DNA of 30,386 bases from Raillietiella orientalis (taxonomy: Eukaryota): contig JAYWIR010000051.1 in the NCBI GenBank assembly GCA_036172245.1, positions 992,001 through 1,022,386 on the forward strand, given 5' to 3'. Every line of letters begins with the position of its first letter. Position 1 is the first letter of the stretch. Under the pieces are notes generated by a model. The model saw only the letters and a program-made list of their open reading frames with translations. It ran no database searches and was not told where the DNA came from. A program made the translations under genes and the position numbers. This document shows, piece by piece, positions 12,481-30,386 of the stretch.

Positions 12481-13758
12481 ATGTCTGCATTCTGCTGCCA
12501 ATCTGATCACAAAGACCTTTCCAAAGAGACTCGTGTTGGAAAGATCATTGAAGAGCATACAGTGTATCAGAAACAAAGAGCTCGACTGACATTGTCCCCA
12601 AAGAAACCTGTGCCACCCTATTTTTCATTGTTTAAAGATACAGAATTATCTGTAACTTTCAGTCAAGCTCCCCCAAAAGCCAGTTCCCTTTGGCTGCCTA
12701 AAGCTACAACTGTACAAGTGCATCCTGATTTCATAAACTACACACTGTATTTCAAATTAACTCAAGCAGTGGCAAAGTTTGCACCTGCAGTTTATTTTTT
12801 TGGCATGAGTGATGTTCTCCTCTCTCTTATAATGCTGCTTCCTGCTGCATGTACTGTGTTGCTAGCTATGGTATTTTTGCATACATGCTGTAACAGCTTG
12901 GCTGTGCTATCTTTATCTGCTGTAAGAAGTCAGTTGCATATGGTAGCAACACCCCCACAGCCAAGTGCCTATCACAAACAGAGTGATTTGGTAAACCAGT
13001 TATGTGCCTCTACTCACCAGTTGGAAAAAAAGAAGAAACGTAGGAGGAAAGCAAAAGCTCCAATGAAAAACACTCAGGAAGATGCAAAAGTTGAGCCAGT
13101 GAAAGTATTTTCATCCCTGTGCGATAGTGAACTTGATGATAAAGACAGATCCAGTCATCTGCAGGATGCCAATAGCATCCCATCTTCTTGCATTCCTGCT
13201 TCACCATGTGACTTTTTGGAAGAGCCTTCGTGGACTTTGGCTAAAAAGCCTCATCGCAAAAAAAGCAGTGATCCAGCTCGTTCTGTTTGCAGGTCTGGAA
13301 AACGAGCTTTCTCAAGCACACCATTCATTGTCACAAAAGCTCGCTCTAGTCGCCAGTCAGAATCTGCACGACCTCCCCTTTCCCATTTGCATTGTGGTTT
13401 GCAAAAGTCTGAGAGAACTAGCAACTTTTGCTCAAGTAGTTTCTCAGTTAACAAGTGTCATAGACCATTGTTTGTTCCCCAGAGACGCTCCTATTCCTCT
13501 GTTGTAGCTCATGGGTCTTCTGCCAATTTCACTTGTGAAACCTGTGTGCTACTCACAAATGGGGACTCTGAGAATCCAGTCACTTTGGGGCTGGGATCAA
13601 ATTGGAACAGTGGTGCTAGCAGCTTGTGTTGCTTCAAGTATTCCAAGAGTATTGACAAAATTTGGAGCCAAGGTCATGATAGCTGGCTGTTTGCATGCAC
13701 CTGGTCTCCGTGTATCTGCAAATATCCCGAAGACTCTGTCAATCAGGAGGAATTAAGG
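12481..13758 (+). CDS. Probable large coding exon of a host gene of unknown function (hydrophobic segment, KKKKRRRK cluster, Ser-rich region)
   Basis: 476-codon open frame in AT-rich DNA. It is preceded by acceptor-like TTTTAG ending at 12480 and contains donor AGG/GTAAGT at 13759. No family recognised. Confidence 0.6.
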
Positions 13759-14634: not shown

Positions 14635-15289
14635 ACGGAGGTTCAATCCAGTGTTCGAAACAGTACATGAAGAATGTCGTTGGCATTGAACTTGGGATGT
14701 GCAGCGGGTAAGTGGATGGAAGCATCGAGTTCCCGTACCCGTGGTTCTCGTGAGCGACGTCCTTTCCTGCGCATTCACCCGGTGCGTTCACCCTGAGCAC
14801 AAAGCTCGGAGATTACTGCATACCTTGCTATGAATCCGCAAGGTAAATCGCCCCCTTTTTGAAATTTTTGGGGCGCAACCACTCAGAATCCTTCCTCCCC
14901 TTCCCTGAGCAGTAAAGCCAGGAGCGATCATCAAGATGATCAGTCTTCAGAAGAATGAAGCAGCAGTTTCTTTCTCAGAAGAGGAAGGTATACTTTGGTC
15001 ATCATGGTTGTGCTTTTCCTCGGAAGAGCCTCGTGATAATCATATCAAAATCTTTCTCAGTCCGACGTGCGGTGGGGCAATCTTATCGTTTGCAGTCAAT
15101 CAAACAAACAATCGAGGAGACAGGGAAGATTGGTAAGCCTTTCGGGAATGTACTTTGGTTTGTCTCTATTCATGTCTTCACCGGGCAAAGATTCGTTTTT
15201 TGCATACTCGAGGACGAAGGATCAGGAAGCAAAGAGTAGGGAGGGCAATTGAGGGATGGGTCGTTTAGTACACACTACTTTGTGCCTCC

Positions 15290-18200
15290 TGGTGTCATGT
15301 CAGGATCCCCTGTCTGTCAGCTTTCTCAATCTTTCGAAGGACGTGGCTGAAAATCCACATGCTGACACCCTAGCCCCTCGAAGCTTTGTCTTCCGGATGA
15401 GGATGTTCGAACGAAAATGCCAAAATGCTCCTTAGAGTGGATTGTAAGGGGGAGGAAACAGCCCCCTCTCCTTAGATTCCTCGGAGGGTCCCACATCGAA
15501 ATGGATTTTGGAAGTTCATCGCCTGCTTCGCCACCCTCCTCCACTCTTTGGAGAGGATTCTGCAGATGTACAGGTGGAGTGGGGCTTCTAAGATCCCTCA
15601 CGCGGGACAGGCTCCACCGTTCGGGTTTTCAGTCCAATGTCGGAGCCTTGTGCCGCACAGGATCCCTCCGTGGAACACCAGGAGGCAGTCCCGAATCTCT
15701 GGAGGCAGTTCTGACCTCCAAAGGACGGTCCCTATGGCTATTGGATTTAGGACCGGTTTCCTGAACCTTTCCCACACCTTTGATATCACGTCCTCGGCAT
15801 TGCTTTTCGACTTGAAGAGACATCCAGTCCTCGGGGTTCCACTCTGAGCCAATGCGAGTCCTGGTCTTGGCAGAGTCCGCGGGTCCCGTTAGTCATCCAT
15901 CCTTGCGGCTGGCGCTTGTAATGCAACACTTTGCTTTCGTGGATGTTGGTGGCGAGGTGCTCTCATTCTGCGATGGTGACTGTTTTTATGCTCTAGAGCA
16001 ATTTTTGTGTGGCAGAGGACACGCTGAGGAATCGTGAACGACCAACTCTTTGCCCCGAGGTTCCCTGCTTTTCTGGACGATCCCCGAATTCTTTCTTCGT
16101 GCCAGTTCTTGTTTCCTTCTCGGTGTGGGGTCTGTCAGGTACCACTGTCCTGTTGATCCGTGCAAGGGGCGCACCAGGCCCTCGGTCCCGTTGATACTCG
16201 ACGCTCCTTAGGCTCGATGGGACGCATATGACCATTGGTAATAGGCGCCGACGTGCCTGATGATGTGCCGCAGGTCCCGGAGAACTGGGCAACGTGCGCC
16301 ATGACTGTACCTCCTTCCTGGAGCGGTCAGCACACATACGCTTACTCTCGGCATCCGGTCACTGCTTGCCAGGTGTCGCCGGATGTAAGCCAGGTTCGGT
16401 CACCTTCTCCGGCATGCTGAGGAAGACCGTCCCGAGCGAGAACTTGGGTGTGAACACCGGTTTCATTGTCCTTCTCCCTCAGGGAGAAGTTCGCTCGCGC
16501 CTTGGTGGTCCAATGTTTGATTTCTGACTCTTTCCAGGATGCCCTTCAATTTGAGTCCTCAGAGTGCCAGTGGTCTTTTGGCGTCTCCGATGCGGACTCC
16601 CAAGTGTTTTGCCACGGCTGCTGTCCCGATTCCGTGGGATCTCAGGGGGGTGACGTTTGCTGTCCGGTTTTCATGGCCAAGGCGATTGTCCAGAAACGGC
16701 CTTCCATCCTGCTCGTCTGCCATGACACGAAGAGCAGATCGTCGGCGTAGGCCAGGTGGTTGACTCTCTCCCTTTCCGGGGCGAGTCCCTGCGGTGGACT
16801 CGCCGCCGTCGCGTAGGGCGACACCTGGTCCATGTTCAGAACGAAGAGCACGGGGCTCCAGGTTTCTCCATGTCGGACTCCCCATTCGAACATCCGGTGA
16901 TGCCAAGGCCGTTGATCCTGACGGCGAATTTTGCTTACCGCGTGAGTGGTCAAGGATTCTTATTCGGAAAACCCGTCTTCCCGAGGATCCTGAGCAGCGT
17001 GACGTGATCCCTTCCGATTCGAAGGCCTTCGCGATGCCGATGAGGAGTGCAGCATCAGGTCGCTTCCCGGGATGCGCCTGGATCCTAGCAGGGCTTGGGC
17101 GCGCTTGACGTTCTCCCATGCGTCCTGCTTGGAACGGCGCACGTCCGCGTAGGAAAGACCACAGTCCCGAGGCACTTCTTCAGTCCGTCTGCCCGGATCT
17201 TGGCCATCCACCTCGCATCCTAGATCGACCTCCACTGGTTGGTGGACCAAAAATTGCCACCTCCACCCTTCGGGAGTTACCGCAACCACACCCTGCTACG
17301 ATGCAAGGAGGCGGGAAGTCTACCTCGATCCTCCCTCGGACCCGGATGAGCAGCTGCCGGAAGAATCGCTGGTAGGCCAGCAGGTGCCGCTGACAGTGCG
17401 TTACGGGCGCGTTGTCGGAACCTGCCGTCACGTCCCTGCAAGGCTCCGGGAACGCCGCTTTGAACTCCTCATCGTCCGTAACTTCCGCTTCGATCTCTGA
17501 GGACTGTCGTGCGGCCAGTAGTTTCACCGCACGAAGACGCCTCGGTTCCGAATTCCCTGCCCGGAACAGCCGGGAGAGGCAGTGGCAGAAAGCGCCCACC
17601 CTCTTGTTCCGACGTTCGGCAGTCGGTGTCTCGATATTAGATGTGAAGGATGTCTGTGGATTGGTCTTGCTCCTCCCATATTTCATTTACGTCCTTCTTC
17701 CCTCTTTTGTCCGGGTATCTACTCTGGGGCTCTTCCCAATACGCGAAGTGAAAGGCGTCGCGTCGGTGGATCCCCGGGCAGGCTTCTTCTCGAAGTGTCC
17801 TGTCGTCGAATCGCATGTTTGAGAAGAGGTGGTGGACTGCATGTTCAAGGCGATCTCAGTCGTCTACGGAGTGGATGGTGCTTCTGGCAAGGATTGTCTT
17901 CACGACGCGCTGGTATTGCGGGTAACATTCGCATCAGACTAGCATGCATATGAGTGTTGGCCTTGGCTACTGGTGCTCCCTCCTGGGATTTCACCAGTGC
18001 AACTGGAACCTCAACAGGGGGTAGCCCGAGAAGTCGGGGAGACCAACTGCGTCTACGGGCTCCCGGAGCCCCCTGGATGCGGTTTGCGACGGCCCGTGAG
18101 TGCGGGATGTAGTCGATGTGTGTGAAGCTCGAACCTATCCACGCGATGTCGAGTGCTTCCGCCACGTGGCAGTGAATGCTGAACGTCTAAGGCAAGCCGC

Positions 18201-18988
18201 CGGTTGAGGTTAATGTTGAGGTCGCCCATCTCAGCAGGATGAGACGTCCTTCGGTGCCGCCTTGCTCTTGAGAAGAGTTCCCAAGACCAGCGAGAAGGCT
18301 TCCCTCTTCTCATGAAGCCGTATACCTTCACCGCAAGGAAGACTTCCAGGATGGCCACCACCTCGCGGTTGGGCTCTCCCTGGCTGACGTCGATGGTCGC
18401 TCGCAGGTGCTGCGCCCACGTGGTGTCGCTGCCTGTTCCGCCAGACAGGTGGACGGTCGTCCCCACGATCTCGGAGATGCCGTGGACTACAACCGTCTTT
18501 CGGTTGAGGAGAAGCCCATTGTCGAGATCGTCGATCACCTCCGAACTGTCCGTGTAGATGGAGAATCCCACGACGAACGGCATGATCTCCTTGATACACT
18601 GAAAATCAATTCCTTTGCTGTCGATCCCGAGGTAGATCTCCCTCAATGCTCTGTCCGTCCGCGTCCTGTTCGTCATTACAAAGGTGACCGAGGTCACGTC
18701 CGGGCCGAAATTGCTTAGGAACCGGAACCCCTTTCGATTTGTCAGCAGACGATGCAGCCGCGTACGTGCACCAATGCCCTCGTCGGCGAAGACGCGGATG
18801 CGGTCACGTGCGACAATGCCACGGGTGCCTTGCTGTCGTCGTCGTCGCACGCGAAACTTCCATCCGTCCGCAGGCCGCATCCGTACTCCCCACCGTCTCC
18901 ACGACTACCGGTCTCCGCAGGGACACGCAACCGGAACACCATGCGTCCGCAGTTCAGACAACACAGCTTCTGCCTTTAGATTACGACT
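15290..18988 (-). mobile_element. Decayed, internally deleted relative of the intact element, directly downstream of U5
   Basis: ORF1-like LREIYLGIDSKGIDFQCIKEIMPFVVGFSIYTD...TTVHLSG matches VKDIYIALHQKNVDMDVVQAVIPCGNGFTIYTS...TTVYLKG. EN remnants VKVYG, GDLN, IDYI. RT GVRHGETWSPVLF...HLAYADDLLF and KHLGVRIG. C-terminal SELPPEIRDCLLVFHGGILCGTRLRHWT matches SDLPPDTQDDLLLFFNGGILSGSRLRHWT. Many frameshifts; boundaries approximate. Confidence 0.9.
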
Positions 18989-19110
18989 TGCCCTAACAGG
19001 GCACTCAAAAAATTCGGAAAACGCTCTTTTCGACGCTCCCGCCCACGGATTTCTTTAGTAAAAGGCGAAAGAAATGCGCGCTTAGAGCGGGAGCCCGAGC
19101 ACGTTCCGAT
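18989..19110 (-). ncRNA. U5: U5 spliceosomal snRNA (~116-122 nt; 5' end between 19104 and 19111)
   Basis: Minus strand carries invariant loop I in ATTTCTTT-CGCCTTTTACT-AAAGAAAT, the conserved CCG internal loop, stem GCTCCCGCTC/GGGCGGGAGC, basal stem GTGCTC/GAGCGT, Sm site AATTTTTTGA and 3' hairpin TGCCCT[GTT]AGGGCA. Confidence 0.96.
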
Positions 19111-19133
19111 TGCATCCGATGTTGGCCTGAAAG

Positions 19134-19156
19134 TACAGTTAAGGTCCCCACGTAGT
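19134..19156 (-). promoter_or_regulatory. Candidate snRNA proximal promoter element upstream of U5
   Basis: ACTACGTGGGGACCTTAACTGTA starts about -46 to -52 from U5 and resembles the U1 upstream motif. Confidence 0.4.
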
Positions 19157-19906
19157 GGCGTTGAAGTCAGTTTAGAGCTGATACTTTTGGAAAACAAAAT
19201 CACTCATTTTCTATGTTTAGAAGGTTTCGCTTTCGAAGATAAAGAAAAGGAAGCTCAGTTTCATCTGCGACAATTTCTGTCACGACATTGAGTGGATTCA
19301 TAAGTAAATTTTCAAAAAGATCAAGTCTGCGCTGCCTGCCATCTATCTTACGATCCTTGCACCGAATTAGTGACAAGCATGACGAGAGCCTTCCAGCGCC
19401 GCGCTTTCAATATTTCCAAAGATCGTGCTTCTTCGAGGGTAAATATTTGACGATGACGTTTCCATTTGGAAAAGGCAAACCGCGATTCCTCAATGTTGCA
19501 CCCATATTCGACCTTCGAGCTTTTGTTGACTGCAGTGCACCTTCGTCAAAGAGTCTGAAAGGAAAAGTCCCTAAGCAAAGCGCTCGCAAAGATGCAAAAG
19601 TTGCACCGGTGGTTACCATTTCCCTGCACTTTGAGGGGTGGCTCAACGATTCGAGGGTGACAGCGACGAGAGCATGACTGCAGTGCTGATGTACGGGCTC
19701 AACTCCCTGCGGCGAAATTTGCTGCAGACGGATTCAAGAAGCTTGTTCCGCGGTGTCAAAAGTGGGAAGTGACGGTGAGAACGGGCAAAAATGATATGGG
19801 GATGCATGTGTGTAGAAACCACCACTAGTGCATTTTTGTTTCTCTGATTCGTTCTTCCTTTATATCCGGTTGGCCCTTACTTTGGACATGCGCCTCGTAT
19901 AAACGG

Positions 19907-20138
19907 AACCTATAGGGAAGACGCTGCCAGCGTGGTCACGAGAGGAAACGAAAGATTCTTTTGGAAACCACGGCTGCGCATGCGTTAGAATCTCCTAGAT
20001 ACCATTTGTGCGTCGATTCACCATTTAGGGGTCTGGATTGCGCTGGCTCCACGACACGCTTGCTCGATCCTGGTGCAAGTCTTTTGTCGGAAGAATGCGG
20101 AACGTGGTTCGCCCAAAATTACGGATCCACTAATCTCT
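19907..20138 (+). repeat. Diverged ~230-bp duplicated block, copy B
   Basis: Same ordered motifs as 14404-14634. Confidence 0.85.
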
Positions 20139-20299
20139 CGAGCTAGACGTGCAGTGGCGTGACTTCACACGTCCACAGCTTGCAGCAACACTTGCACATT
20201 CGTTTAAAACAGCATCTCGCACTGTTGTCCACCGTGATGGCTTCCTCTCGGTGTTCTGTCGTAACGCTGTTCTCTTGGGGATGGTGGACAGATGCTTCG

Positions 20300-23011
20300 G
20301 TGCTGCTTTGAGATCACCAGGCCATCTGCAGTTCCTGTAGGTAAGCATACGTAAGTGCTCATGCAGGCATCCTTCGGCAGTTGAGGGTATCTTCAGCCGC
20401 TTTTACAAGGTCTTGTTCGACGGCATGTTTCTCCGCCTTCGCACCCGGATGCTGCTGATGAAGAAGGCAAAGATGGTTTCCAACATCGGGTTGTACGCCG
20501 GAACTTCCAACTCGGACATTCCCGTGGAAGATCACGCATTCAGGACGCCCTCTGGCAAAACGTTCTTCATTCATCCACTGTCCAGTCGTTGGCCAGTGGC
20601 AGACAGATGAGGTAGCACGTGGAGTTTGGTTTCGCCACGCGCTTAGGAGCTTCATGCTGACTTCTCCTTGTGAGGTGTCGAAGCCGAGCACCGCACAAGA
20701 GATCTCCGGCGTAGGAAAGCAGGAAGCCATCTAGCGTGTTCGGTGGTGAGTCGGCTGTCCAGATCGCGGTGACCGCCGATCGCCCTGCAGATTTATCTGC
20801 GTCGTGAGGAAACGTCGGGTTCCCGCTGACAGTACGGGTCTCCCTTGCCGCGTCCGGTCTTCGCATCCTCTCTCTTCACTTGGCTCTCTGGAACACCATT
20901 CACTTCCTTTCCAAAGTTTTCCAGAGCTCCCTCGTCCCGCAGGCCACTCTGCGTCCCATTTTCGTGATCCACTGGAAGAGCCACATCTGGTGGCGGTTTT
21001 CGCTGGTTGCGAGCGGTTCGGAATGCGCGCACGATCTTCAGATGGGGTCTCTGATGAATCACTGTTCCCTGCGGCAAATACACGAAGCGGAATATCTCCG
21101 GAGGCGATCTTTCGTCCCAGAGTCTCTTGGCTTATGGGCTCTATTTTCAGCTGGTGGATGCTGAGCAGCTGCATTTTCCGTGAATTCGAGGGGTCGACCG
21201 AATACCACTTGTCATCCTTGGTCACTGGGGCTACCATCATGCCTCCAGACTCTTACAGCACCTTGGCTCGGGCTATGCAAGCAGCGTAGGGACGCCCATC
21301 TCAAGATCTTAGCGGCTTCGATTAGTTGACGAGCGTCGGAGAGCTGGGCTTCCCACTCTGTCGGTTTCATCCACACGCACGTACTCCGCCAAGTATCGCG
21401 GGAAGCACAGATTCTCCAGAATTCCGAGGAATACTCCCGTGGTCCACGGAGTGGAGCACCTTCACCATGTCGGTGAAGCCCAGCATGCGGTTGTCGCCGA
21501 GGTACCGACTCAAGCCGATCGTTGCCTGGGGCGCACTCGACGTTGTCAGGCATGCGCGTATCCGCGAGGCAGAATCGACGATGGAATTGCCTTTTCCATG
21601 TGGATGGCCCGGATCTTCGCCAGCCACTTGGGACGTCCGTGCTCAAGGTGGAGATTTGCCGCAACTGCGATACTTTCGCAAGGCCCCCGTTTGTTGAGCA
21701 ACAGCCTCATCATGCTTGCATGGGACGACGCTGGAGGCTACCGTCCTCTCCTGATCCCATTCGTCTGAGCTCGTGGAACGGACGGGGACAAACGTGTGGG
21801 TGCCGTCGAACGTGGCGCACGCACGCAACACCGTCACCTGCCGCCACGCCCTAGCGCAGTCCCGCCAACAAGCCCTTGATTTCCTTGACCGTTGATATCT
21901 TGCTCCGGGATATGCTGTGGTCTCGGCCAAGCCATCTCTGCGGATATCGGAGGGCGACTTGCAGCTACATAAGGAGCAGAAAGGAAATGGAAGCGGGAGA
22001 CGTCATGCTCTTGGAACGCCCCGCGGTACCTGCGGTGCCCTCCGACATGTACCAAAGCGCATTCTGGGATTCCATGGAGAAGACGCCTGTGGAGACGTTC
22101 TTGCCCTCCATCAGGCCAGCGTCCCCATTCACGCGGTGGAAAACGTACCGTCACTCGTACTGATCCCAGTACCGCGAGAATAAGCGGTCAAAATCGCGCG
22201 GACTCCATGCACAAACTCCTAGAAGCCGGTACAACAGCTCAGCTACAGGCGGTATCACACATGCACATCTTGCGAGGGCTCGCCGTGGGCGATGACACCT
22301 AGTATACGGGCATCAGAAAGAAGCTTGGAGCATGCTCCTGCAACTCCTGCAAAGACGTCTTCCATATGACTGCGCAATGTAACCTGTTTGCAATCTCGTA
22401 TAGGGAGAAAAACTCACACATTCTGAGGCGTTGTACAACGGCGTATCCCGGAAAAGTAGAACGCCGTAGTCGCTAGACCTCAAAGAACGCGAAATCGCTT
22501 CCCATTCAGCACCATACCACTCTCGATGAGTGTCTCTTGCAGCTCTGCGAACGAGGTATATAGCGAAAACACAATTGATGAAGATAGGATCGCCATTAAT
22601 TTTTCAAAGTCCACATTTCGCTTGAGGAAAAAGACATACATGTCACGCAAATTGGAGGCACCTAACATCCCCATTAAAAAGGTGATATCAAAGTCAAAAT
22701 TCATAAGAGATTTGTCCAACCGCTCTATTTCCAAACTTTCGGGCCTAGAAAACGCCACATTCCTAGCAACTGGAATGGCAGCCGCCACTGCAGCATAAGA
22801 TAGCGACAGCGTTGCCAGTAACGGCGTAGCTCCCACCTTGGAGGAGCGAATTTGGAAAAATAACATAAGCGTAGGGGTCGTCCTAGATCGTCCATCCACT
22901 GGTCGGTTGAAATTGACAACACTTAAGCTTCCGCAAATACAGGCGGAGTCCTTCACCCAAAAGGTGCAAAACAAAAAATTCGCCATGGTATCGCTGCATT
23001 CAGGCAAGTAT
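20300..23011 (-). mobile_element. Second decayed, internally deleted relative of the intact element
   Basis: ORF1-like SYAAVAA and LRDMYVFFLKRNVDF...FSLYTS...GMVLNGKRFR (22480-23022). ORF2-like YWDQYE*RYVF (vs YWPQYESRYVF), ATIGLSRYLGDNRMLGFTDMVK..VDH, KWYSVDPSNSRKMQLLSIHQLKIEP, GDLLCGARLRHLT and PAYNPMLETIFAFFISSI. Boundaries approximate. Confidence 0.87.
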
Positions 23012-24079: not shown

Positions 24080-24242
24080 ATACTTACCTGGCTTCGAGGC
24101 GATCTTGGTCACCATGGAGATCCCTCCAGAGTGAGGCTCGATCATTGCACTGCGATTGGGCTGACCTCTGCGATAACCCCAAACGTGGGTTACTCGGAAG
24201 CATAATTTTTAGGCTGGGAGACTGCGTTCGCGCGGACTCCTG
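24080..24242 (+). ncRNA. U1: U1 spliceosomal snRNA, full length (~163 nt)
   Basis: Starts ATACTTACCTGG. Helix H GCTTC/GAAGC. SL1 GAGG-C-GATCTT[GGTCACCATG]GAGATC-CCTC. SL2 has the U1A loop ATTGCAC closed by GCTCGATC/GATTGGGC. SL3 TAACCC[CAAACGT]GGGTTA. Sm site ATAATTTTTAG. SL4 GGGAGACTGCG-TTCG-CGCGGACTCCT. Order and spacing match canonical U1. Confidence 0.97.
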
Positions 24243-24380
24243 CGAATTTCTTCAAAGTAAGTGGTTTTTTTCGAGTGCTGTGTGGAAAGTGGTGCCACAG
24301 AAAGGGACCGTGGACTTTGCCCTACCACCCAGTGTGCGGAGGAGGACGTTGCCCCACGGGATCGGCCCCAGTGGGGGAAA

Positions 24381-26003
24381 ATGGAGGCGGTGGACGTCTC
24401 CACATGTGCGAGGCCGGTAGAGGCGCTGGCGGCGAGATCGGCGGAAGGGCCGAACGCAGCGTGCGCGGGAGCGGCGTCCCCTGCAACGCTCGTTGCGACG
24501 CCCGTATCGATCCGCCCTGCGTCGTACGCGGCGGCAGCAGCGGCGGCGCCACCTGGCGGTTGGAATGCGGCGGCGGTGAAATCGGTCGGTTTTCCGGGAG
24601 TGCCTCCGGCAAAACCGAGGATCCCTGTCCAACCAACACGGTACATCCTGGACGACGAGGATGAGCCTATACTCGTCCTGCCGGCAGATGTCAAGCCGGT
24701 AGTTTTTAACTGCGGTCCCCTTCGTTTGGCAAACGTGAAGGACATTTACATCGCCCTTCATCAGAAAAACGTCGATATGGACGTAGTTCAGGCCGTGATT
24801 CCGTGTGGGAACGGTTTCACCATTTACACGTCGTGCGATCCCCTCATCGAGGCACTTTGCGATCACGGCTTGACCATCAGTGGGAAGCTATTCCGTGGAG
24901 TAGGAGAAACCTCCACGACGACAGTGTACCTGAAAGGGGTTGACTTTCACACCAGCAAGAAAGTCATCAAGAACTTCCTGTCGCAGTACGGGGAAGTCCA
25001 CCATCTGGAGATACGGAACCAGTTTGGTGAGATCTTCTCCGGAGAAGGATTTGCCAAGATGCGCCTGTACGAAAATGCGCAGATGCCTGGCGTGGCTTAC
25101 ATCGACGCGTATTCGCAATCGGTGATGTTCAAATACAGGCAACAACCTGTATTTTGCGCTGGCTGCAAGACGTTTGGGCACCGCATCGGAGCATGCCCTA
25201 GGGCTCAATGTCACCGATGCGGCCAGCGAGGACACTTCTTCCGGGAGTGCAACCAGCCCATAAAGTGCTACTTCTGCGGCTTGTCTGGTCATTCGAAGAA
25301 GGAATGCAGGCGATACGCCGCATGGAGGGACGCACAGGGGCTGCCACCATTAACGGTGGAACCGCAAGTGCAAACGGAAGAGGAGAAGAAGACTCCTTCG
25401 GCCGAGGTGACTGCCAGGAAGGCGGCAGAACTCACCGAAGGGAAAAAGAAGCCCGCAAAGGGGAAGAGAAAGACAGCACCACAACCTTCTGTGGAAGCGC
25501 CGGCGGAAGAGGCCGAGCCAGCCAAGGAAGCGGTGGAAATACAAGCTGCAGAGTTGGCGGAAGTTGCCAACGTAACAGCAGAAGTGCAAGAAGTCGCGAA
25601 AATCGTGCAGGAAGCAGTAACCAGAGAAGCGAAGGCAGAAGCTCTGGAACGCATCAGCCGGGTGGAGGCCTCCATCAACGAGCGCGTTCCAGACGCGGCC
25701 AAACGCTTCCAATTGGAAGAAAGGATGCTGGAAGTGAAACAGCGCTTCGCCAGAGGGGAGCTTGAGGATCTGCAATATGCAGTCCCTCGAAGCGTCCTTA
25801 ATGAAACGAGGCACTCAATCGCAGACAGCACCGACTACGTCGGGTCAGAAAGCGACGTAGGAGATCAGCGAGACGCAAAGGGGGGACGACAACGTCTCCC
25901 AAGAAGAAGAAGAGCAAGAGGAAGAGCAGGTCCTCCAACTAGTCCCCTATGGCCACCTTCCTGTCGACTGTCAGGAGCATCAACATCACCTCCTGGAACG
26001 TGA
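24381..26003 (+). CDS. Retrotransposon ORF1, gag-like nucleic-acid-binding protein (~540 aa) with three CCHC zinc knuckles
   Basis: First ATG after U1 is at 24381, in frame with ORF 24261..26003. Knuckles CAGCKTFGHRIGAC, CHRCGQRGHFFREC and CYFCGLSGHSKKEC. SYAAAA motif near the N-terminus, a TVYLKGV RRM-like region and an E/A/K-rich tail. Confidence 0.93.
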   Translation: MEAVDVSTCARPVEALAARSAEGPNAACAGAASPATLVATPVSIRPASYAAAAAAAPPGGWNAAAVKSVGFPGVPPAKPRIPVQPTRYILDDEDEPILVLPADVKPVVFNCGPLRLANVKDIYIALHQKNVDMDVVQAVIPCGNGFTIYTSCDPLIEALCDHGLTISGKLFRGVGETSTTTVYLKGVDFHTSKKVIKNFLSQYGEVHHLEIRNQFGEIFSGEGFAKMRLYENAQMPGVAYIDAYSQSVMFKYRQQPVFCAGCKTFGHRIGACPRAQCHRCGQRGHFFRECNQPIKCYFCGLSGHSKKECRRYAAWRDAQGLPPLTVEPQVQTEEEKKTPSAEVTARKAAELTEGKKKPAKGKRKTAPQPSVEAPAEEAEPAKEAVEIQAAELAEVANVTAEVQEVAKIVQEAVTREAKAEALERISRVEASINERVPDAAKRFQLEERMLEVKQRFARGELEDLQYAVPRSVLNETRHSIADSTDYVGSESDVGDQRDAKGGRQRLPRRRRARGRAGPPTSPLWPPSCRLSGASTSPPGT

Positions 26004-29000
26004 ATGGATTGTGGAACCCGGAGAAGAGACGGATGGTCACGCGGACCATCGAGCGTGACCACATCGTGTGCCTTCAGGAAACCCACGAGCTCGAACATCA
26101 GACCATCTTGGAGCTGGAACGACGACTGGACGCCCAGCTGTTCGTGAGCCCGGGCCAGAAAAGGACCAAAAGCGTGGCGATGCTCGTGAAGAACGAGATC
26201 GCACACACCATCCTGGAAACCTTTTCACCTTGGCCCGGCCGAATCGTCGCAGTGAGGATGTCCTGGTCCGGAAACGTTCACCTGTACTTGGTGAACGTGT
26301 ACGGGCCACACCGTGGAAAACATCGCTGCGCGGAGGCCGTGCAGTCTCTGCTTCGCAGCAAAGCTTCGGCAAAGGACATCGTGATCGTCGTGGGTGACTT
26401 CAACATGCTGGACAAGATAACGCAGTCCAAGGATGCGCGGGGAAGAACGGCGTATCGGCGGCTGTCGGACGAGTTCGGCCTGCAATGGCTGTCTGCCGCG
26501 AGCAAGCCGATCGACCACGTCCTCTTCAGCGAAGACATCGCGACTCGTGTGCAAGGCTTCCGGGAGTCTCCATCCGTACTCTCGGATCATCCCCTGCTAC
26601 GATTCACGCTGAAAACAGAGAACCCCCGAAGAAAGGAAGGCGCGCGGGCTGCATTAGTATGCATGCCCGCATGGTTCCAGACGCATCCCTGTCACCAGGA
26701 ATTGATCGAGGCGATCCTGCGCAGCACCACCATTCGCAGGGTCGCCGACTGGGACAGGTTGAAGCGAACCATCCATCTGTTCAGTAATATGCAATACGGC
26801 GACAGGAAGATGAGGACGGAAGCGTACCGCGAGCTGGAACAGCAGCAAGATCGCTCGCTCTCGAAGTACTGGCCCCAGTACGAGAGCCGGTACGTCTTCA
26901 AGACGGTCAAAGGAGAAGTTGGAGTGCTGGAAAGGAGGAACATCGCCAGCGAAGTTTTCTCCATCCGGCACGCAGATGAAGTCAGGCACACGTCCGAAGG
27001 AATCGCGGAGGCGTTCCACCATCATTACGCCTCGCACTTCCGACGAAGACTTCTGTGCCCGACAGAACAAGAGAACATTCTGCGGTACCTGCATCCGCGT
27101 GTAAGGAAAGAACACCAGGAAAAGATGGAAGCCGAGATCTCCCCAGAGGAAATCAAGATCGCTTTCGCTGGACTGCGCAAGGATGTGGCGGCAGGTCCCG
27201 ATAGTGTTCCCATCTCGCACTATCAGCGGTACCTGCACGCCTACCTTCGCTTGTTCCACGAACTGACAAACGCCATCCAGGAAGAAGGAAGACTTCCAGC
27301 ATCGTTCCACGAGGGAAGGATGAAACTGCTGCCGAAGGGAGGCGACCTGATGGAAGTCACCCAATGGCGGCCGATCACCATCCTGAACACGGATGCCAAG
27401 TGGCTGGCGAAGGTCTGGGCCAACCGCTTAAGAATGGCGATGCCATCCGTCGTGTCTGCTACGCAGACATGCGCGGTGCCCGGACGAAGCATGACTGCGA
27501 ACGTGAAGTGCGCCCTGGCCACCATCGGTTATTGCCGATACGTGGGCGAAGACCTGGTGCTTGGGCTCACGGATATGGAGAAGGCGTTCGACACCGTGGA
27601 CCACTCGATGCTGCTGAAGATCTTGAGGAAACTGGGCTTCCCAAGCATCTTCATGCATTACCTGGAATGGACCCTGGCGGAGCAAATCGTGAAGATCAGG
27701 ATCAACGGACTTGAGACGGCAGCAATTCGGATGGAAAGGGGTGTCCGCCAAGGTGACGCCCTGAGCCCGATGCTGTTCGTGCTGTACATGGAGGCGGTGT
27801 CCGCGATTATAGATCGGGGCAGCCGCCTCCAAGGAATAAAAATCGACAGCCAGCAGCTGACACACCTTGCGTATGCGGACGATCTGCTGTTCTTCCTGAA
27901 GGACGAACGTGATCAAGAAGCATTCCTAGGTGTTGTCAAGCAGATGGAAAATGGACTAGGACTCAAGATCAACTGCCAGAAGAGCCACCTGCTGCCAATC
28001 GGGATCATGGACCTCTCAGTACTTCAAGAGGCCGGATTCCGAGCGGCTGACACCGTCAAGTACCTGGGTATCCGCCTCGGCGAAGAGACTGCGTCTCGCT
28101 GCCTGTGGCAGGAGATCCTGGGTAAGGTCACCGACGAAGCCACCAAGTACACCAGAGTCGACTTCAACATGAAGCGGAGGGCTGCCTTGTGGAACGGAGT
28201 GCTCCTTCCCAAGGTTCTCTACGGAGCAGCCTTCTGCCGAATGGACAAGAAAACAAAGGAAGAACTGGAAAGGCTACAAAGAAAGATCCTCTGGCGGGAG
28301 TATAGACCCAGGGTACGGCTGAAACTTCTGTGCCGCCCACGCGAACACGGTGGGACCGGGATGAAGCTGCTGCAACACTCCGTGGAATGCATGGATGCGC
28401 GGCAGCTCCTGGATCTCACCAGAAGTTGGGAAGACTGGCCCTATGCAGCGCACCGGGCGTACTCGAAGCTGTTGAACGGCTCGAGAGGCCTGATGTCAGC
28501 GCTCATAGGTGCCACAGGACAATGGATCAACATCGACCCTACGTGGAAGCGGAAGCAGGCACTGGTGAGAACCCAAGGGTTCAAAATCGTGCCTCGCAGC
28601 TCCGAGATATGGGACGAAGAACTGGCCATGGTGATACCTCACTTGATCCCGATGCCAAGGGAGACAGTGAACTGGTTGAACCAAAGGCCTAGATTGAACA
28701 TCCGACGGTGCGAGCAGTTCGCTACCAGTGCCAGCCGGCACCAACTGCGACTGCATCGCCTGACCACGACCTTGAGGGGTGGTTTCAATCATCGCACCCG
28801 GGAACTTTGGAAAGAGCAGCCGCAGGAGTCGTGGCTGCTGATGACCAAAGATAACATCAGGGTGGAAACGGCGCGAAAACACCAAGACCTGGATGCCCTC
28901 AACGCAGCCTCGTGCCGTTACGGCCCAGCACATGCCAATGTGGTGGCCGTCGGGGCTGCACTGATGAGGAGCGACCTACCTCCGGACACTCAGGACGACC

Positions 29001-29476
29001 TCCTGTTGTTCTTCAACGGAGGCATTCTGAGTGGATCCAGATTGCGGCACTGGACCGGGAGACAACAAGATGGATTCTGTTTGGCGTGTGGGGAAGAGGA
29101 AACCCAACTCCACGTACTCACCTGCCCCACGCTGCGTCCGGACTGGAAGGCGGTAAAGGCGGTGACGTGCCTGCAGAGGAAGACTGCGATGCAGATCCTG
29201 TGGGGATTGTTTCAGGGGACAGGAGTGGTTCCCCTGTACAATCCGATGGTTTTGACGACGCTGGCCCTCTTCATCACAGCCATTGTGATAAGAAGGGCCA
29301 AGATGTACACACAGCGACGACAAGTGCCGGCTTGGGACATTCTCAGCGGCCTTGTTCGGAAGGAAATCGGGATTAGGAGTTGCGGAAGAATCGCCGCCTG
29401 GACGTACCGTTACATCTTGATGAAGATGGTCGAGTACTCCCAGGCACAAAGGACGATCCCACCCTCCGCCCCTTAA
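25949..29476 (+). CDS. Retrotransposon ORF2: AP endonuclease, reverse transcriptase and C-terminal zinc finger (1175 aa)
   Basis: APE motifs SWNVNG, CLQETH, VNVYGP, VGDFN, IDHV, SDHP. RT motifs GPD, WRPITILNTDAK, DMEKAFDTVDH, GVRQGDALSPMLF, YADD, KYLG. C-terminal CLACGEEETQLHVLTC. Confidence 0.97.
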   Translation: MATFLSTVRSINITSWNVNGLWNPEKRRMVTRTIERDHIVCLQETHELEHQTILELERRLDAQLFVSPGQKRTKSVAMLVKNEIAHTILETFSPWPGRIVAVRMSWSGNVHLYLVNVYGPHRGKHRCAEAVQSLLRSKASAKDIVIVVGDFNMLDKITQSKDARGRTAYRRLSDEFGLQWLSAASKPIDHVLFSEDIATRVQGFRESPSVLSDHPLLRFTLKTENPRRKEGARAALVCMPAWFQTHPCHQELIEAILRSTTIRRVADWDRLKRTIHLFSNMQYGDRKMRTEAYRELEQQQDRSLSKYWPQYESRYVFKTVKGEVGVLERRNIASEVFSIRHADEVRHTSEGIAEAFHHHYASHFRRRLLCPTEQENILRYLHPRVRKEHQEKMEAEISPEEIKIAFAGLRKDVAAGPDSVPISHYQRYLHAYLRLFHELTNAIQEEGRLPASFHEGRMKLLPKGGDLMEVTQWRPITILNTDAKWLAKVWANRLRMAMPSVVSATQTCAVPGRSMTANVKCALATIGYCRYVGEDLVLGLTDMEKAFDTVDHSMLLKILRKLGFPSIFMHYLEWTLAEQIVKIRINGLETAAIRMERGVRQGDALSPMLFVLYMEAVSAIIDRGSRLQGIKIDSQQLTHLAYADDLLFFLKDERDQEAFLGVVKQMENGLGLKINCQKSHLLPIGIMDLSVLQEAGFRAADTVKYLGIRLGEETASRCLWQEILGKVTDEATKYTRVDFNMKRRAALWNGVLLPKVLYGAAFCRMDKKTKEELERLQRKILWREYRPRVRLKLLCRPREHGGTGMKLLQHSVECMDARQLLDLTRSWEDWPYAAHRAYSKLLNGSRGLMSALIGATGQWINIDPTWKRKQALVRTQGFKIVPRSSEIWDEELAMVIPHLIPMPRETVNWLNQRPRLNIRRCEQFATSASRHQLRLHRLTTTLRGGFNHRTRELWKEQPQESWLLMTKDNIRVETARKHQDLDALNAASCRYGPAHANVVAVGAALMRSDLPPDTQDDLLLFFNGGILSGSRLRHWTGRQQDGFCLACGEEETQLHVLTCPTLRPDWKAVKAVTCLQRKTAMQILWGLFQGTGVVPLYNPMVLTTLALFITAIVIRRAKMYTQRRQVPAWDILSGLVRKEIGIRSCGRIAAWTYRYILMKMVEYSQAQRTIPPSAP

Positions 29477-29594
29477 CCCTAGGAACACATACAGACCAAT
29501 TGTGAAAGTGAAATGTATCACGGTCATACAGACATTAAAAGTTTTAATGAATGTGAATTAGGATGATTGGAGTGAAAGGAATTTTGTTGGTTGC

Positions 29595-29628
29595 AATAAA
29601 TTCACCCCACCGCTTGTCGGACTTGGGG
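29595..29628 (+). other. Element 3' terminus: AATAAA followed by a GC hairpin, with no poly(A) tail
   Basis: AATAAA at 29595-29600, then CCCC-A-CCG[CTTGT]CGG-ACTT-GGGG at 29605-29628. U1 sequence resumes at 29632. Confidence 0.6.
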
Positions 29629-29631
29629 ACA

Positions 29632-29772
29632 ATCTTGGTCACCATGGAGATCCCTCCAGAGTGAGGCTCGATCATTGCACTGCGATTGGGCTGACCTCTG
29701 CGATAACCCCAAACGTGGGTTACTCGGAAGCATAATTTTTAGGCTGGGAGACTGCGTTCGCGCGGACTCCTG
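29632..29772 (+). pseudogene. U1: 5'-truncated U1 snRNA (nt 23-163)
   Basis: Identical by eye to 24102-24242 but lacks ATACTTACCTGGCTTCGAGGCG, which includes the 5' splice-site-pairing arm. Confidence 0.93.
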
Positions 29773-30386
29773 CGAATTTCTTCAAAGTAAGTGGTTTTTT
29801 TCGAGTGCTGTGTGGAAAGTGGTGCGACAGAAAGGGACCGTGGACTTTGCCCTACCACCCAGTGTGCGGAGGAGGACGTTGCCCCACGGGATCGGCCCCA
29901 GTGGGGGAAAATGGAGGCGATGGACGTCTCCACATGTGGGAGGCCGGTAGAGGCGCTGGCGGCGACATCGGCGGAAGGGCCGAACGCAGCGTGCGCGGGA
30001 GCGGCGTCCCCTGCAACGCTCGTTGCGACGCCCGTATCGATCCGCCCTGCGTCGTACGCGGCGGCAGCAGCGGCGGCGCCACCTGGCGGTTGGAATGCGG
30101 CGGCGGTGAAATCGGTCGGTTTTCCGGGAGTGCCTCCGGCAAAACCGAGGATCCCTGTCCAACCAACAAGGTACATCCTGGACGACGAGGATGAGCCTAT
30201 ACTCGTCTGCCGGCGTCAATAATGATGGTTTTTAACCCTACGGTCCCCTTCGTTTGCTGGCAAACGTGAAGGACATTTACATCGCCGCCCTTCATCGAAG
30301 AAAAGCGTCCCGATATGGACGTAGTTCGGGCCGTGATTCGATGTGGGAACGGTTTCACCATTTACACGTCGTGCGATCCCCTCATC
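29632..30386 (+). mobile_element. Second tandem copy of the element (U1 head, 5' UTR, start of ORF1), cut off by the window end
   Basis: Near-identical to 24102 onward, with a few substitutions up to about 30200. Several indels after that break ORF1. Confidence 0.92.

Follow-up and report, generated by a model that had tools for sequence, protein, structure and literature searches.

The 2015 paper on the Utopia elements lists only Keno, Utopia, Dada-U1 and Dada-U6 as inserting into genes for small nuclear RNAs (snRNAs) (PMC4640811). Keno, of the Tx1 clade, and a Tx1 family listed with a U5 target are autonomous elements without long terminal repeats (non-LTR elements) that combine an apurinic/apyrimidinic (AP) endonuclease with a reverse transcriptase (RT) and occupy one site in an snRNA gene transcribed by RNA polymerase II (pol II) (PMC4494074). 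Tx1 is described as a group found in animals, and the 3′ flank of Keno is identical to that of Utopia, starting at nucleotide (nt) 39 of U2 (PMC4640811). Neither an snRNA at the head of the element nor a rebuilt target is described for Keno or the U5 family in the passages that concern them. In the U2 arrays of Phytophthora, a truncated U2 (from nt 39) lies downstream of Utopia and an intact snRNA upstream, several Utopia families adjoin in a single array, and the maintenance of these elements in about 10 U2 genes has been called hard to understand (PMC4640811). Here we analyse a 30,386-nt stretch of contig JAYWIR010000051.1 of Raillietiella orientalis, read on the forward strand and referred to as the window, which holds an intact long interspersed nuclear element (LINE) between a complete and a 5′-truncated U1 snRNA gene. 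This element is named A, the next copy behind it A′ (both on the plus strand) and two decayed relatives on the minus strand B and C (Table 1). Like Keno and the U5 family, A is an autonomous element with an AP endonuclease and an RT in a pol II snRNA gene, and like Utopia it has a truncated snRNA downstream and an intact one upstream; its target is U1 and that of C is U3, instead of U2 or U5. We see about an even chance that A/A′, B and C are three lineages of one deep-branching, L1-like autonomous non-LTR family that lands ~20 nt inside pol II small-RNA genes, carries a whole Sm-class snRNA as its head (U1 in A, U5 in C) and rebuilds U1, with read-through transcription as a further step.

Element A is bounded by two U1 sequences. 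The upstream one is full length and exceeds the gathering threshold of its Rfam family (RF00003, 69.5 bits), and a second match to U1 covers 29610–29772 (+) at 105.2 bits. In a pairwise alignment, the two copies are identical only from U1 nt 23 onwards (24102 = 29632), over 194 nt with 0 differences, and the identity crosses the U1 3′ end into the leader of the element; the 22 nt that precede 29632 are the 3′ end of element A and not U1 nt 1–22. An initial annotation of this DNA had given the order as full U1, open reading frames ORF1 and ORF2, 3′ untranslated region (UTR), U1 nt 23–163 and next copy, and had placed the 3′ end of A against U1 nt 23 with a complete U1 upstream. Rfam, reading of the sequence and alignment agree with that order in every detail, and the junction is confirmed by an identity that starts exactly at 24102 = 29632. 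We read U1 nt 1–22 (24080–24101) as derived from the target and U1 nt 23–163 (24102–24242) as the head of A. The repeat unit is 5530 nt long. A′ is 97–99% identical to A up to ~24676/30206, with 5 substitutions in 381 nt, after which a cluster of insertions and deletions (indels) disrupts its ORF1; an intact A upstream of a broken A′ fits growth of the array at its head. The divergent stretch itself (24677–24770 in A, 30207–30310 in A′, +) has many small indels and substitutions within ~100 nt of ORF1 between nearly identical flanks, and could be hypervariable or a product of recombination.

Which of the flanking snRNAs belongs to the element is seen at C, which spans 19125–15052 between two pieces of a U3 small nucleolar RNA (snoRNA) gene and is headed by a complete U5 snRNA. 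The last base of C, 15052, adjoins U3 at about nt 18–21, and in this 3′ part of U3 the covariance-model alignment shrinks the 5′ loop with its conserved boxes from 26 model positions to 1 nt; the 5′ piece of U3 is on that strand too, at a distance of 4.07 kb. This piece was recognized by the pattern GTACTNTNAGG, built by comparison with the 5′ end of Entamoeba U3 (Table 7 of PMC3542256), which has 1 match in the window compared with 0.06 expected; Rfam gave no match on the 32-nt stretch that holds the 5′ piece alone. A 189-nt contig of the public run X1 spans the C/U3 junction without differences. X1 consists of low-depth DNA contigs and may be the window's own source, so its contigs are not independent of the window, and parts that they leave uncovered are uninformative. 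Judged from the sequence, C entered a U3 gene at about nt 17–21, and the inserted unit is the filler, the full-length U5, the leader, the ORFs and the 3′ UTR. Because this U5 lies within another gene, 24 nt behind the 5′ piece of that gene, it came in with C and is not native. Of the two small RNAs that flank an element, the truncated one downstream represents the target, and the complete one upstream is part of what moves.

The body of C matches the proteins of A at 30–48% amino acid identity in pieces (tblastn; ORF1 159–226 and ORF2 172–1069). Its protein homology reaches from just past U5 to ~15530, and an internal deletion has removed the end of ORF1 and the first ~170 amino acids of ORF2 (a gap in tblastn cover, 18440–18165). 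The 23-nt filler in front of U5 (19103–19125, −) contains ATCGGA twice; it may stem from nucleotides added at the 5′ junction, from a second template jump or from a start farther upstream.

These results sort the claims of the initial annotation. It held that the 3′ junction marks insertion into a small-RNA gene, and this is strengthened by C, the 3′ end of which, with the same motif, adjoins a 5′-truncated U3. Its proposal that the rest of U1 is carried as a head is upheld in so far as C also has an snRNA head, but that head is whole from nt 1 and does not comprise only the part 3′ of the nick. The restoration of the target that it envisaged applies to a U1 head in U1 and not to the U5-headed C in U3. 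Since head and target are a different pair in C (U5/U3), seamless rebuilding is only the special case in which a U1 head meets a U1 target.

Table 1. Features of the window, in order of position within each group (array of A and A′, then C in the split U3 gene, then B).
Feature	Position	Strand	Basis and remarks
Complete U1 snRNA	24080–24242	+	Rfam RF00003, 132.9 bits, model 1–166
Leader of A, between U1 3′ end and ORF1 ATG	24243–24380	+	138 nt; in A′ identical to 24295 (first 53 nt)
ORF1 of A	24381 (ATG)–26003	+	Frame open from 24261; three CX2CX4HX4C zinc knuckles; intact
ORF2 of A	25949–29476	+	1175 amino acids, intact; AP-type endonuclease, RT with YADD, C-terminal Cys/His motif
3′ UTR of A	29477–29631	+	Ends in family terminal motif (29607–29623); no poly(A)
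U1 nt 23–163	29632–29772	+	Remnant of the target of A, also head of A′
A′ (leader and ORF1 start)	29773–30386	+	Continues past window end; ORF1 broken by indels from ~30207
3′ part of U3 gene	14878–15051	-	Rfam RF00012, 54.3 bits (15048–14878); starts ATYTTGRT (15051–15044); without 5′ boxes
Body of C	15052–18987	-	Decayed relative of A; many stops, frameshifts, internal deletion; terminal motif 15075–15059
Full-length U5 snRNA, head of C	18988–19102	-	Rfam RF00020, 81 bits, model 1–117
23-nt filler between U3 5′ piece and U5 head	19103–19125	-	Sequence reading
5′ piece of U3 snoRNA gene (~nt 1–17, box A′ region)	19126–19142	-	GTACTNTNAGG match; cut off by C insertion
Element B	20133–22686	-	Decayed relative; span from protein homology and degenerate 3′ motif (20159–20133)

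The elements also share their 3′ ends. With up to 3 mismatches allowed, the terminal motif CCACCGCNNGTCGGACT is found just twice in the window, once where A ends and once where C ends (at least 2 matches were obtained in 12 of 100 shuffles), and in an alignment of the 3′ ends B finishes in a degenerate form of it. Directly behind the junctions at 29631/29632 (A/U1) and 15052/15051 (C/U3) stands ATYTTGRT, which is also present at 24102; with 8 matches in the window compared with 4.8 expected, this sequence is weak on its own. A search for a conserved hairpin at these 3′ ends was negative (z-scores of 0.21 for A, −0.32 for C and 0.18 for B). We also considered the last 22 nt of A as a degenerate copy of U1 nt 1–22 (11/22 identical), and discarded this since the same motif ends C beside U3. 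Matches to the 3′ motif in a metagenome scan are attributed to chance: the strict pattern gave 0, and a 17-base pattern gave 61 loci, none of which (0/61) is similar to ORF1 or ORF2 by tblastn (E 0.01).

At the other end of the elements, an snRNA in sense orientation stands in all three heads that can be assessed (A, A′ and C; B falls outside this count). The junction from U1 to the leader is identical in A and A′, and an X1 contig (four rows of equal depth, taken as one contig) has it too, at 4 differences, pointing to another copy. The idea that the leaders of A and C contain native snRNA 3′ flanks, including a 3′ box like that of vertebrates, is unsupported, as four 3′ flanks aligned with MAFFT showed no clear block and the two leaders do not align better than shuffled ones. 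Within the leader of A, GTAAGT occurs 17 nt past the U1 3′ end (24259–24264, +), and again in A′ (29789–29794), with no counterpart in the leader of C. This is the consensus core of a 5′ splice site, complementary to the U1 5′ end, and could be a splice donor, a binding site of U1 small nuclear ribonucleoprotein (snRNP) that affects 3′-end processing, or chance.

The proteins place the family near L1. ORF2 matches the Pfam families Exo_endo_phos (1.4e-17, residues 15–214) and RVT_1 (3.5e-30, residues 462–710), and the zf-CCHC families match ORF1 only below their curated cut-offs. Against solved structures, ORF2 matches human L1 ORF2p at 1.5e-56 (195 bits), whereas R2 proteins are found at 8.3e-24 or weaker. 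By these similarities the ORF2 enzyme is L1-like and belongs to the non-LTR group with AP-type endonucleases. The Utopia endonuclease is of the PD-(D/E)xK type, in contrast to that of A; a Pfam search of ORF2 returned no restriction-like endonuclease and only the N-terminal AP-type one. An exhaustive search, run on representatives of ~15 billion public proteins, found 59964 relatives, of which the best 150 are 23–33% identical and match mainly ORF2 330–840; the 5 named ones in its top 10 belong to a green alga, a plant, a turtle and a fish. A word-indexed search gave 13 matches at 22–37% identity. Neither the word-indexed search nor the best 150 of 59964 relatives yielded a relative close enough for a comparison of genomic context. 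B matches the proteins of A at 28–36% amino acid identity in pieces from 22686 to 20448 (tblastn), and the homology of A, B and C extends outside the RT core, to ORF2 211–350, 772–908 and 997–1069, at up to 48% identity. Because A, B and C share homology beyond the RT core, and the public relatives match mainly 330–840 at no more than 33% identity, we regard the three as one family.

We propose that the arrangement arises as follows. The endonuclease would nick the bottom strand just 5′ of ATYTTGRT, and target-primed reverse transcription would begin there on an RNA template with an snRNA at its 5′ end. When this snRNA is U1 and the target is a U1 gene, the U1-headed end of the cDNA could anneal to the leftover upstream U1 nt 1–22, which would produce a seamless join and a complete U1 behind the native promoter. 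The rebuilt U1 could then be hit again, so that copies would line up head to tail, the youngest and intact one (A) lying upstream of the damaged A′. Where head and target are unlike, as in C, there would be no homology to use, and the whole head with filler would be joined to the broken target. As a further step, read-through transcription from the snRNA promoter is plausible, by which the head would be inherited.

Several observations weigh against this proposal. The window holds only one 3′ junction between an element and U1. Four X1 contigs carry the last ~35 nt of A followed by sequence unlike U1; among the X1 contigs that have the 3′ end of A (29595–29629), three differ before 29595 and four behind 29629, with an agreement of 0.58–0.62. 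Such contigs may represent other families, or non-autonomous elements that use the RT-recognized 3′ end at other targets. The two U1 heads show 0 differences in 141 nt, which is not exclusive support since it fits inheritance and template switching alike. The leaders of A and C are not significantly alike (their score is reached by 403 of 500 shuffles over the whole leader, and by 63 of 500 over its first 45 nt), and a comparison of the regions upstream of U1 and U3 revealed no common promoter motif, with no common 8-mer and no positional match. Head and target can differ, as C shows, so rebuilding is not a general property of the family.

Some of these points bear on an alternative in which small-RNA genes are targeted in the same way, and the snRNA heads are added afresh by template switching rather than inherited. 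The complete U1 upstream of A would then be a by-product of homology between a newly copied U1 and its U1 target, and the element would have its own promoter. We consider this unlikely. L1 chimeric insertions with U1–U6, U3 and 5S have the RNA full length, in sense and at the 5′ end, with no need for co-transcription (PMC13174262); the U5 ahead of C in the split U3 and the U1 ahead of A and A′ have this very form. In the same vein, U1 and U2 sequences have recurrently been added to the 5′ ends of SINEU elements, which are mobilized by Tx1 elements (PMC4494074). The U5 head of C, unlike its U3 target and with filler in front, would fit switching, as would U1 parts that are identical in A and A′ while the bodies differ, and leaders of A and C that are not significantly alike. 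Against switching stands the frequency of the heads: an snRNA is present on 3 of 3 assessable heads, whereas the catalogue of L1 chimeras came to 253 insertions in all (PMC13174262). The U1-to-leader junction is moreover common to A, A′ and another contig, and does not have the one-off character of template-switch chimeras, although switching that recurs at exact RNA ends could create the same appearance. Seamless rebuilding would in any case still require the homology step of the mechanism that we propose.

A second alternative, which we judge improbable, dispenses with the head. In a tandem U1 array, an insertion at nt 22/23 would have deleted the 5′ 22 nt of its target together with the spacer as far back as the intact U1 before it, and unequal crossing-over would have produced the two copies. 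Tandem units are indeed ambiguous about where an element starts, and Utopia offers a precedent: its 3′ ends lie at U2 nt 39, with intact U2 instead of U2 nt 1–38 upstream, for which Kojima and Jurka proposed deletion on integration or recombination (PMC4640811). However, deletion in an array cannot produce C, with its U5 head inside a split U3 of which the 5′ piece is kept. A and A′ are also not a fresh duplication, given their 5 substitutions and the indel cluster. In A, the ORF1 ATG follows the U1 3′ end at a distance of only 138 nt, and A′ is identical to A at the U1-to-leader junction and over the first 53 nt behind it. That the assembly has fused U1 reads to a repeated LINE is highly improbable: repeats and low read depth favour mis-joins, and the X1 contig over the 3′ UTR of A ends at 29632, one base into U1, but X1 contigs match several parts without differences, including the C/U3 junction, and one has the U1-to-leader junction (with the reservation that the run may be the window's source), and the same logic recurs in three separate elements.

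Returning to a family with element-borne snRNA heads, we find that it differs from each of the systems it resembles. The arrangement around Utopia was put down to deletion or recombination by its authors, whereas C shows an snRNA head borne by the element. R2 and R1 depend, as read-through of A would, on transcription of the target gene, and co-transcribed target sequence is said to strengthen target-specific integration (PMC4494074). Unlike A as proposed here, R2 and R1 carry no target copy that rebuilds the target. Their insertion inactivates the ribosomal RNA unit. L1 chimeras such as U6/L1 share the full-length sense snRNA at the 5′ end (PMC13174262), but are one-off events, mostly of truncated L1s at non-specific sites, whereas here full-length autonomous elements target small-RNA genes. 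SINEU elements, mobilized by Tx1 LINEs, likewise have snRNA-derived heads (PMC4494074), but are non-autonomous and prefer a Mariner transposon as target; the heads described here are on autonomous elements. Dada-U1 DNA transposons are likewise specific to U1 snRNA genes (PMC3706591), but move by cut-and-paste with 6-bp duplications at another U1 site, with no reverse transcription and no head. In the full-text literature searched, which did not extend to Repbase entries or to journals behind a subscription, we found no non-LTR element reported in U1 or U3 genes and none described as rebuilding its target. The doubt voiced in the initial annotation, whether an autonomous LINE that targets and restores U1 had been reported before, thus holds within that literature. 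As far as these searches reach, U1 and U3 are new LINE targets, and element-borne snRNA heads are a new twist on target-specific LINEs.

Site-specific LINEs attract interest as natural systems for insertion at safe harbours. If real, an element by which the target is restored would directly answer how a host tolerates insertions in low-copy snRNA genes, and would offer a design principle, in which the payload mends the gene that it has interrupted. C would serve as a natural control, the product of the same machinery when head and target do not match, and in the exhaustive search none of the best 150 of 59964 relatives exceeds 33% identity to the family. It is possible, if on balance doubtful, that this is an unsampled LINE clade that uses Sm-class snRNA genes as a portable front end: it would land ~20 nt into a pol II small-RNA gene and rebuild this gene with its head, so that the host loses nothing, and would be transcribed from the snRNA promoter as an snRNA–LINE fusion RNA, which the Sm site in its head might direct into the pathway by which snRNPs are assembled and imported into the nucleus. 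The intact U2 genes that stand upstream of Utopia in Phytophthora may have a similar explanation.

Element B adds observations on decay and on flanks. It is without the end of ORF1 and residues ~1–300 of ORF2 (a tblastn gap at 22183–22189, −), and C similarly is without ~1–170. Both deletions remove the endonuclease region, and could be independent or reflect a deleted, trans-mobilized subfamily. A shortened U1 as the head of B was considered and rejected, as the local alignment score of 46 is not significant compared with shuffles (40.0 ± 6.7, maximum 59.5). Rfam at permissive thresholds gave no match at the 3′ flank or head region of B, and nothing new across the window. Behind the 3′ motif of B, at 20132–20095 (−), an Sm-site-like run (AATTTTGG) is followed by a short hairpin; this stretch looks like the 3′ half of a small RNA of the Sm class and is possibly the truncated target of B. 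Elsewhere in the window, a 55-nt direct repeat with 75% identity (13047–13101 and 19557–19611, both +) lies near U3 and upstream of the promoter region of the split U3 gene, and may be due to chance.

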